Of a DNA stretch of 64,000 bases, positions 6,032-6,898 are shown one piece after another. Location: positions 120,519 through 184,518 of the IMG/VR virus record IMGVR_UViG_3300045988_112927; one strand, written 5' to 3'. Below the pieces are notes generated by a model that searched no databases, was not told the DNA's origin, and saw nothing but the letters and a program-made list of their open reading frames with translations. Made by a program: the position numbers and the translations under genes. Position 1 is the stretch's first letter. Each line of letters begins with the position of its first letter. Origin of the DNA: a virus.

Positions 6032-6103
6032 GCGGATGTAGTTTAATGGTTAGAATGTGTGCTTGCCAAGCATATGATGGGGGTTCGATTCCCCTCATTC
6101 GCT
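6032..6103 (+). tRNA. tRNA-Gly(GCC)
   Basis: Acceptor GCGGATG/CATTCGC with one G-U pair. Anticodon stem TGTGC/GCATA with loop TTGCCAA. T-arm GGGGG-TTCGATT-CCCCT. Confidence 0.55.
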
Positions 6104-6280
6104 CTCATGAGAGTCTAACAGCAATTTTCTTAATTCAAGATTAAGAAAGTCTTTTGTAAAAACATTTACAAAATTAGGATGGTGAGCAATACTTATTGTA
6201 ATGCGACGGGCGCTTCATGTATTGAGTAGTTTATTTTTGTGTGACTCTCGAAATTGGCATGGACTTAAACAAAAAATATA

Positions 6281-6706
6281 TTGAAGCGTCTTTTTATGCC
6301 AGATACAAATGTTTATGGAACTATAACTGAACTTAAATGTAAAACCTATTTTTTAGAGCTTGGATATTTAACATCAACACCAGATACGCCGTCTAGATAT
6401 GATTTTATTTTAGACGCTGGTGATAGATTATTAAAAATTCAAGTAAAATCTTGTCATTTTATTGATGGGAAAATAGTATTTAAAACAGAATCAAGTCATA
6501 TTACTTCAAATGGAAGCAATAGACGCTCTTATAAAAATGAAATTGATTATTTTTGTACTTGGTATGAAAATGAATGCTATCTTATCCCAGTAGAAGAATG
6601 CGGTAGAGGAACAAAATCTTTAAGATTAGAACCAACAAAAAATGGTCAAGTAAAAAACATATCTTTTGCAAATGATTACTTAGCAAAGGAGGTTTTAAGT
6701 AGGTAA
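6281..6706 (+). CDS. PD-(D/E)xK-like putative nuclease, paralog 2 of 5 (not inside an intact tRNA)
   Basis: ITELKCKTYFLELGY, RYDFILD, LLKIQVKS, YFCTWYENECYLIPVEECG and PTKNGQVK are present. The likely true start is the ATG at 6296 (MPDTNVYG). Confidence 0.5.
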   Translation: MKRLFMPDTNVYGTITELKCKTYFLELGYLTSTPDTPSRYDFILDAGDRLLKIQVKSCHFIDGKIVFKTESSHITSNGSNRRSYKNEIDYFCTWYENECYLIPVEECGRGTKSLRLEPTKNGQVKNISFANDYLAKEVLSR

Positions 6707-6720
6707 GTGAGTTTGTTATG

Positions 6721-6757
6721 AAGGACAAGGTCATAGGTTCAAATCCTATTACTGGTA
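6721..6757 (+). other. Orphan tRNA 3' half (3' anticodon stem, variable loop, T-arm, 3' acceptor) directly after ORF 6281
   Basis: AA-GGACA-AGGTC-ATAGG-TTCAAAT-CCTAT-TACTGGT-A. The preceding GTTTGTTATG would pair with a CAU anticodon. No matching 5' half (ACCAGTA...TGTCC) was found in the window. Confidence 0.4.
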
Positions 6758-6898
6758 CTCTGGTCATGACAGACGGGATGCGTCCAGTGCCTCGTAAGCG
6801 GAACTCTGGATGGTTGGGGCTGTGAAAGTTAAATGCCTCCGGGTGCGGAGCGAAGGTTGGTCGCCGCATATACTACAAAAAGAAAGTGAGGGTACGAA

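Follow-up and report, generated by a model that had tools for sequence, protein, structure and literature searches.

A homing endonuclease gene and an orphan tRNA 3′ half in a phage tRNA island: a likely 5′-truncated split tRNA(CAU) gene

Mobile introns and their homing endonucleases reportedly go through a cycle of invasion, degeneration, and loss, an idea ascribed to Goddard and Burt in 1999. Endonuclease genes may also stand outside introns; SegB of phage T4 is a GIY-YIG enzyme whose gene is not known to have ever lain inside a tRNA. I-Ssp6803I cuts DNA with 3-nt 3′ overhangs around the anticodon. This PD-(D/E)XK enzyme, whose structure is 2OST, is the homing endonuclease of the group I intron in Synechocystis tRNA-fMet (PMC3384342), and a review table lists a 17-bp specificity profile for it (PMC3424549). 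The known tRNA introns with proteins of its family, PF11645, are group I introns; they lie at 33/34 in cyanobacterial tRNA-fMet and also occur in tRNA-Arg(UCU) of Bacteroidota and Campylobacterota (PMC13011429). A further report describes an endonuclease gene between phage tRNA genes, presumably kept there by its own drive (PMC13096335).

The DNA analyzed here, which we call the window, is a 64-kb stretch of a phage genome, corresponding to about 42.2 to 106.2 kb of contig ena:ERZ27229705:k119_78680 (190,353 bp). The part of the tRNA island within its first 12 kb holds 15 tRNAs by ARAGORN, including a UAA suppressor (3456-3528), together with five paralogous ORFs of 136 to 146 aa and 40 to 64% mutual identity (986-1396, 6296-6706, 8061-8501, 9424-9846, and 10898-11329). 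All five match Pfam PF11645 (PDDEXK_5), at 74 to 116 bits against a cut-off of 26.1, and the only relevant solved structure matched by a profile built from them is 2OST (E = 9e-14). Four of the five sit inside tRNA genes, directly after anticodon base 36, and ARAGORN in intron mode finds all four. The second ORF, copy 2, is the only one outside a tRNA gene. It covers 126 of its 136 residues in the PF11645 match, at 74.0 bits, and is 64% identical in protein sequence to copy 1. Its residues E12, D36, Q49, and K51 fall in columns that are invariant across the five paralogues, and opposite the paralogue motifs YDF and IQVK the alignment has YDL and VQVK from 2OST, whose catalytic residues we take to be Glu, Asp, and Gln-x-Lys. 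Judged by its sequence, copy 2 is a homing endonuclease of the PF11645 / I-Ssp6803I type that appears to have kept its catalytic residues.

The intact members of the family define what a complete locus looks like. In the window, the split tRNA genes (921-1447, 7996-8545, 9356-9898, and 10832-11369, each interrupted after base 36) are Met/Ile2 CAU, Thr UGU, and two Lys UUU, with inserts of about 450 to 475 nt made up almost entirely of the PF11645 ORF. Across the loci with resolved boundaries, the inserts measure 443 to 505 nt and the insertion point is always 36/37. Noncoding insert sequence amounts to some 16 to 56 nt in the intact copies inspected and to 14 nt at the copy 2 locus. We compared 36 distinct IMG/VR loci with nine anticodons (CAT, TTT, TGT, GTT, GAT, TCC, GTC, TAC, and TGG). 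In these, the last three insert bases complement the anticodon, and bases -4 to -10 have the first seven of the insert as their pairing partners. This junction helix has 91.5% of its cells paired, against 54.9% in shuffles, and its covariation score is 0.93, against 0.23 when shuffled (0 of 500 shuffles reach 0.93) and 0.09 to 0.16 with the partner slid. The 10-bp helix, the 33-37 pair, and the anticodon stem together form a helix that spans 17 positions with base 35 at its centre; the exon-insert junctions are symmetric on the helix, 3 bp apart, with a 3′ overhang.

No group I ribozyme accompanies these inserts. Rfam RF00028 gave no match at E <= 10 in window positions 800-12000, including any overlapping the copy 2 ORF, and none in 10 related loci, some of them with longer inserts; a true, unrelated group I intron at 345-563 of locus L059 was detected and served as a positive control. 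The boundaries rule of group I introns (a U ending the 5′ exon and a G ending the intron) does not describe the intact members either, in which the last exon base is nt 36 (U, C, or G) and the last insert base, which may be any base, is the complement of nt 34. Three further models were tried and set aside. A bulge-helix-bulge intron does not fit, the helix being continuous with no bulges at the cut sites. RNase III seems an unsuitable cutter, since the stagger inferred from exon boundaries, which are unambiguous in most loci, would be 3 nt and not 2. A 3-bp target-site duplication does not account for the anticodon complement, the repeat being inverted and not direct. In the searchable literature we found no account of phage tRNA genes that carry PF11645 inserts lacking a ribozyme, and endonuclease-only inserts in the anticodon loop of phage tRNAs are apparently an undescribed class.

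Copy 2 lies in a different setting. Its upstream neighbour is an intact tRNA-Gly(GCC) on the plus strand (6032-6104; ARAGORN, Rfam tRNA 66.6 bits), which is outside the truncated gene. The copy 2 frame, also on the plus strand, is open from 6281; relatives and public gene calls place the start at ATG 6296, giving a 136-aa ORF (6296-6706, stop codon 6704-6706) that begins 191 nt downstream of the tRNA-Gly, in line with the roughly 190 nt of the preliminary description. The intervening sequence is a structured element (6105-6295, plus strand), recognized from the alignment of two copies and from its fold (-46.1 kcal/mol, z = -3.4). The second copy lies at about 10500-10770, after tRNA-Gly(UCC). 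Each contains the motif ATGAGAGYCTAACAGCAA and is closed by a hairpin bearing a U tract; no Rfam entry matches the element, and among 224 fetched loci the motif is confined to this phage. Beyond the hairpin of the UCC copy come a strong promoter and, after it, a split tRNA-Lys 5′ half. At the GCC copy, the long closing hairpin (6208-6291) and its UUUUUA abut the ATG of the ORF directly, with promoter and split tRNA 5′ half absent. The element marks the left boundary of the rearrangement at this locus. The ORF has no Shine-Dalgarno sequence, its ATG abutting the terminator-like hairpin. A consensus scan predicts a promoter-like site, TTGGCA-17-TATATT (6254-6282, plus strand, 10 of 12 matches), 13 nt upstream of ATG 6296, and this is a possible new promoter for the gene.

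Downstream of the stop codon comes the 14-nt 3′ trailer of the former insert, GTGAGTTTGTTATG (6707-6720, plus strand). It ends in ATG, the complement of a CAU anticodon, and its final 10 nt make up the 3′ strand of the junction helix, which in intact genes pairs with the anticodon and the first seven insert bases. The trailer is followed immediately by an orphan tRNA 3′ half (6721-6757, plus strand), which reads as tRNA(CAU) positions 37-73 and lacks an encoded CCA: AA-GGACA-AGGTC-ATAGG-TTCAAAT-CCTAT-TACTGGT-A, with the end letters ...TACTGGTA. It occurs once in the window. Since 32 of its 37 positions are identical to the 3′ half of the intact split tRNA in the closest relative, the resemblance is far beyond chance. 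Both the perfect 3′ half and the spacer end able to pair with a CAU anticodon had been pointed out before, and both readings stand.

What the locus once was can be judged from its relatives. The 90% identity cluster of the copy 2 protein has 27 members. The two closest lineages among the fetched loci, L099 (P0126) and L103 (P0127), share 93% amino acid identity with copy 2, and L001, from IMG/VR, shares 89%. In all three, an intact split tRNA(CAU) gene encloses the copy 2 homologue, and the 5′ half and the leader aacgaacaatatcatac..ATG stand immediately upstream of the ORF. The L099 gene runs through GCCAGAGTAGCTTAGATGGTAGAGCAGGTCCTTCAT up to the first junction, continues with an insert that opens with aacgaacaatatcataccgaaaatact ATG ATA GAT and closes with TAA gtgagtttgttatg, and resumes after the second junction with AAGGGTAAGGTCATAGGTTCAAATCCTATCTTTGGTA; an anticodon arm of the L099 type without the insert is GGTCCTTCATAAGGGTA. 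The copy 2 trailer is identical in L099 and L103, where it pairs at 10 of 10 positions with CAT/aacgaac across the junction. The L001 trailer differs.

Homology to L099 extends from the start codon to the last tRNA base (92.4% nucleotide identity over 6295-6757) and is found nowhere else nearby. Upstream of the break, window 6105-6295 resembles the element after tRNA-Gly(UCC) instead of the relatives; the flanks of the relatives are unrelated to the window on both sides, and there is no conserved flank downstream of the tRNA. At codon 2, the window has ATG CCA GAT where L099 and L103 have ATG ATA GAT, and the codon is missing from L001; the break therefore falls at or within the first two codons. 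Given that homology is limited to this span, the locus has lost, or left behind, its promoter, its 36-nt 5′ exon, and its 27-nt leader, all present in the intact relatives, and it may have lost the original ATG as well. It thus has intact homologues and a breakpoint inside the gene, the marks of a truncated gene remnant or tRNA pseudogene.

Between the window, L099, and L103, the insert (ORF, leader, and trailer) is 92 to 93% identical, whereas the exons of the split tRNA(CAU) on either side of it show strong differences of a compensatory kind. The contrast suggests movement of the insert between different tRNA(CAU) genes; an insert more conserved than the exons that surround it is the signature of an actively moving element.

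We consider it probable, on the strength of these comparisons, that the copy 2 locus is a 5′-truncated split tRNA(CAU) gene in which the endonuclease gene survives free-standing and the 3′ half is a recent fossil. The order of events can be envisioned as follows. The ancestor would have carried, between tRNA positions 36 and 37, an insert of about 450 nt with little in it beyond the PD-(D/E)XK ORF, downstream of a 5′ exon with its own promoter. A deletion, or illegitimate recombination during movement of the insert, would then have removed promoter, 5′ exon, and leader; this may have been a deletion in place or the capture of a fragment consisting of the ORF and 3′ exon at a new site. With the break at the start codon, the ORF would have become fused to the terminator-like end of the element after tRNA-Gly(GCC), and an in-frame ATG, kept or recruited, would have yielded the present second codon. 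The truncated locus would yield no tRNA. The endonuclease gene is probably expressed, via the new promoter-like site or by read-through, and selection keeps the ORF, most likely because the enzyme, in cutting cognate tRNA genes carried by coinfecting phages, still helps the gene to spread. The trailer and 3′ half would be a young fossil, acting at most as a homology arm or as a hairpin at the 3′ end of an RNA. The preliminary description had offered loss of the 5′ exon, in a locus recording past mobility, as one of two options, and the intact relatives, together with homology that starts at the start codon, support it.

That description also called the locus decayed, which is right for the tRNA, whose 5′ half is gone, but not for the ORF or the undamaged 3′ half. 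Compared with L099, the copy 2 ORF has a dN/dS of 0.126 (0.117 between two intact relatives), with seven synonymous changes and one nonsynonymous change on the window branch; it is therefore still under purifying selection. As for the 3′ half, its five departures from the L099 sequence (positions 41, 42, and 66-68) are confined to the strands that pair with a 5′ half. Its acceptor strand would pair at 7 of 7 positions with the L001 acceptor GCCAGTA. Its anticodon-stem strand would pair at 4 of 5 with GGTCC of L099, as does that of L099 itself, and the mismatch, 27-43, is also present in L001. Thus, measured against a 5′ half of the relatives' type, the 3′ half contains no pairing-breaking change. 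With no lesion in it, the 3′ half speaks either for a 5′ part lost fairly recently or for constraint that has continued, and the numbers are too small to separate the two. An undamaged 3′ half would fit recent loss, and continued use would look alike.

Such use might be a function of the 3′ half itself, either as a homology arm for copying the free-standing endonuclease gene into cognate phage tRNA genes or as a T-arm hairpin that stabilizes or processes the 3′ end of the endonuclease mRNA. This would refine the truncation account and is not strictly exclusive of it. In its favor, the variable loop and T arm (22 nt) are identical to L099 and the trailer (14 nt) is unchanged, making zero changes in 36 nt while the synonymous divergence of the ORF is 0.27, and 3′ remnants are likewise kept in two other damaged loci, L002 and L059. 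However, the numbers are small, and since half of the divergence belongs to the branch of the relative, zero changes in 36 nt are only mildly unexpected. There is also no independent sign of function, and the flanks past the tRNA end are not conserved. We regard a retained function as unlikely, although it deserves some weight.

The two other damaged loci come from a set of 79 family loci fetched from IMG/VR, 50 of which are split tRNA genes with the ORF inside by ARAGORN intron mode; inspection adds about four. Free-standing members of the family are L072, L074, L076, and L081. The damaged gene of L002 (2953-3465) lies 52 nt downstream of an intact tRNA-Met(CAU) and has kept its anticodon arm, junction helix, intact ORF, and 3′ half but is missing its D arm and the greater part of its acceptor strand. 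In L059 (about 1440-1960), 63 nt downstream of an intact tRNA-Thr(UGU), the intact ORF has gained a Shine-Dalgarno sequence, and all that remains of the tRNA behind it is a 3′ remnant. ORFs have thus outlasted the loss of the 5′ part more than once. Family ORFs in L049, L074, and L076 have in-frame stops at conserved positions, for example TP(stop)GD versus TPYGD, and could reflect stop-codon recoding or pseudogenes.

The other option of the preliminary description, a 5′ half encoded elsewhere and a tRNA assembled in trans, appears very improbable. The missing half would lie somewhere in the 190-kb genome and carry a tail complementary to GTTTGTTATG; the two transcripts would pair via acceptor stem, anticodon stem, and junction helix and be cut and joined like the cis-split tRNAs. 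If true, these would be the first trans-joined halves of a split tRNA gene outside Archaea and certain algae. The idea draws on an undamaged 3′ half and trailer fully compatible with a 5′ half of the relatives' type, on a splice-site-defining helix made of two paired strands that could in principle form between molecules, and on an RNA ligase, a kinase, and a phosphoesterase encoded by the phage. Nevertheless, no partner came to light. As the preliminary description had noted, the 64-kb window contains no matching 5′ half, whether sought as the exact pattern, as G-U variants, as the expected insert leader, or, on both strands, by a pairing search that tolerates G-U and one mismatch and recovers the true 5′ half of L001 as a positive control. 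Nor is there a candidate in 33.2-116 kb of the source contig (83 of 190 kb, taking in the whole tRNA island), where the leader CATAACRAAC appears only as the reverse complement of the locus itself. ARAGORN finds 27 tRNA genes in locus L220 (33.2-53.6 kb of the contig), the first at about 40.4 kb, and none in 94.9-116 kb.

In IMG/VR, the conserved leader with anticodon, TTCATAACGAACAATATCATAC, is found only in the cis gene of L001, and no stand-alone 5′ half with that leader appears there or in a metagenome collection, in which a slightly degenerate leader gave 112 matches, all unrelated, so that this collection lacks these phages and says little on trans assembly. Phages in GenBank gave only tRNA-sized matches. 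All close relatives are arranged in cis, two other lineages are similarly damaged, and the partial 5′ exon of L002 is left unexplained by a trans design. An alternatively folded 5′ half directly upstream, a possibility raised at the outset, comes down to CTTCAT at 6213-6218, within the repeated tRNA-Gly element, and the bases preceding it form no D arm or acceptor strand. On inspection, tRNA-Gly(GCC) and the copy 1 tRNA were rejected as sources of a 5′ part for the 3′ half, since their acceptor strands do not pair with it, and the pairing search on both strands of the window, L012, L220, and L223 found no permuted or opposite-strand 5′ half.

The exact copy 2 protein is present on at least 10 public contigs. 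Six independent metagenome contigs span tRNA-Gly, spacer, ORF, and 3′ half at 99.9 to 100% identity over 1600 nt, and another two contain the ORF and 3′ half. That the join of tRNA-Gly element and ORF is a chimera of misjoined reads from related phages or paralogues has a negligible probability and is refuted in practice: although the break lies where similarity to the four paralogues of the same genome begins, the six spanning contigs come from different samples and two assemblers, which makes the junction no assembly error, and paralogues this divergent (at most 64% protein identity, and nucleotide identities of about 71 to 72% as measured against homologues in other contigs) would not mislead an assembler.

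How are the intact inserts removed? As a working inference, a protein would cut at the helix and the exons would then be ligated, with the enzyme encoded in the insert among the candidates for the cutting step. The orphan has the 3′ strand of the helix and not the 5′ strand, and so cannot enter such a pathway in cis. One can envision that the orphan endonuclease is retained because proteins of this family may act on the RNA helix of cis-split tRNAs, combining a part in splicing with DNA endonuclease activity. We find this more likely than assembly in trans.

Other features of the window may be recorded here. RNA-repair and RNA-associated genes lie at 21581-22996, 38925-40031, 29758-30678, 30761-33268, and 12339-13883; they comprise an RNA ligase (PF09414), a P-loop kinase with an adjacent phosphoesterase, a Thg1-like 3′-5′ polymerase, a major-vault-protein-like gene, and DUF2828/DUF7788. 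The match of the ligase gene, 21581-22996, to PF09414 is 26.5 bits, just under the cut-off. Within the tRNA island, a ROOL RNA (3879-4529, Rfam 313 bits), also present in the tRNA island of L002, is followed immediately by a 118-nt tRNA-like RNA (4538-4655) with a normal acceptor stem and T arm and an oversized middle part. A second oversized tRNA-like RNA, GGGGAAG...CTTCCCCACCA (135 nt, 11373-11507), lies just after a split tRNA-Lys and has a weak tmRNA match (15.7 bits, below threshold). A 58-nt tRNA-like sequence (7131-7188, Rfam tRNA 36.9 bits) has acceptor stem, D arm, and T arm without an anticodon arm, and might be a tRNA gene from which the endonuclease target was deleted.

Taken alone, the copy 2 locus is a broken gene, and its value lies in the light it sheds on the parent insert family. 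Comparison with intact relatives fixes the insert boundaries to the base. Moreover, given that the host tRNA is gone and the ORF is under purifying selection, the protein has a role independent of its own tRNA; this could be drive by homing or, possibly, RNA processing.

Among known systems, T4 SegB offers a likeness in being a free-standing endonuclease gene in a phage tRNA cluster, but the copy 2 gene derives from a tRNA insert and still drags along its 3′ exon. The split tRNAs of Nanoarchaeum equitans and the archaeal bulge-helix-bulge introns resemble the phage loci in two ways: the sequence beside one tRNA half can pair with that beside the other, and a helix, not a ribozyme, sets the cut sites. 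The archaeal motif, however, has two 3-nt bulges around a 4-bp helix at 37/38, whereas the phage inserts have a continuous helix at 36/37; for copy 2, in contrast to N. equitans, no second half was found (83 of 190 kb); and, unlike the archaeal systems, the phage setting is of the bacterial type, with sigma-70-like promoters and a ROOL RNA.

The closest match is I-Ssp6803I and its Synechocystis tRNA-fMet intron, which share with the phage loci the protein family, a tRNA(CAU) host gene occupied in the anticodon loop, and the conserved E, D, and QxK; the 17-bp profile of the enzyme is as long as the RNA helix closing the phage inserts. Compared with the cyanobacterial introns, the phage inserts have no ribozyme, have about 40 nt of noncoding sequence, and lie at 36/37 instead of 33/34, and the copy 2 locus, unlike the Synechocystis intron, is without any 5′ exon. 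The locus also recalls the cycle of Goddard and Burt: a mobile element is seen here in damaged form, and relatives hold it intact. In the classic cycle, however, the endonuclease decays first and the host gene remains functional, whereas here the host gene has been destroyed and the endonuclease is under selection: the copy 2 locus is a homing endonuclease gene that outlived its host gene.
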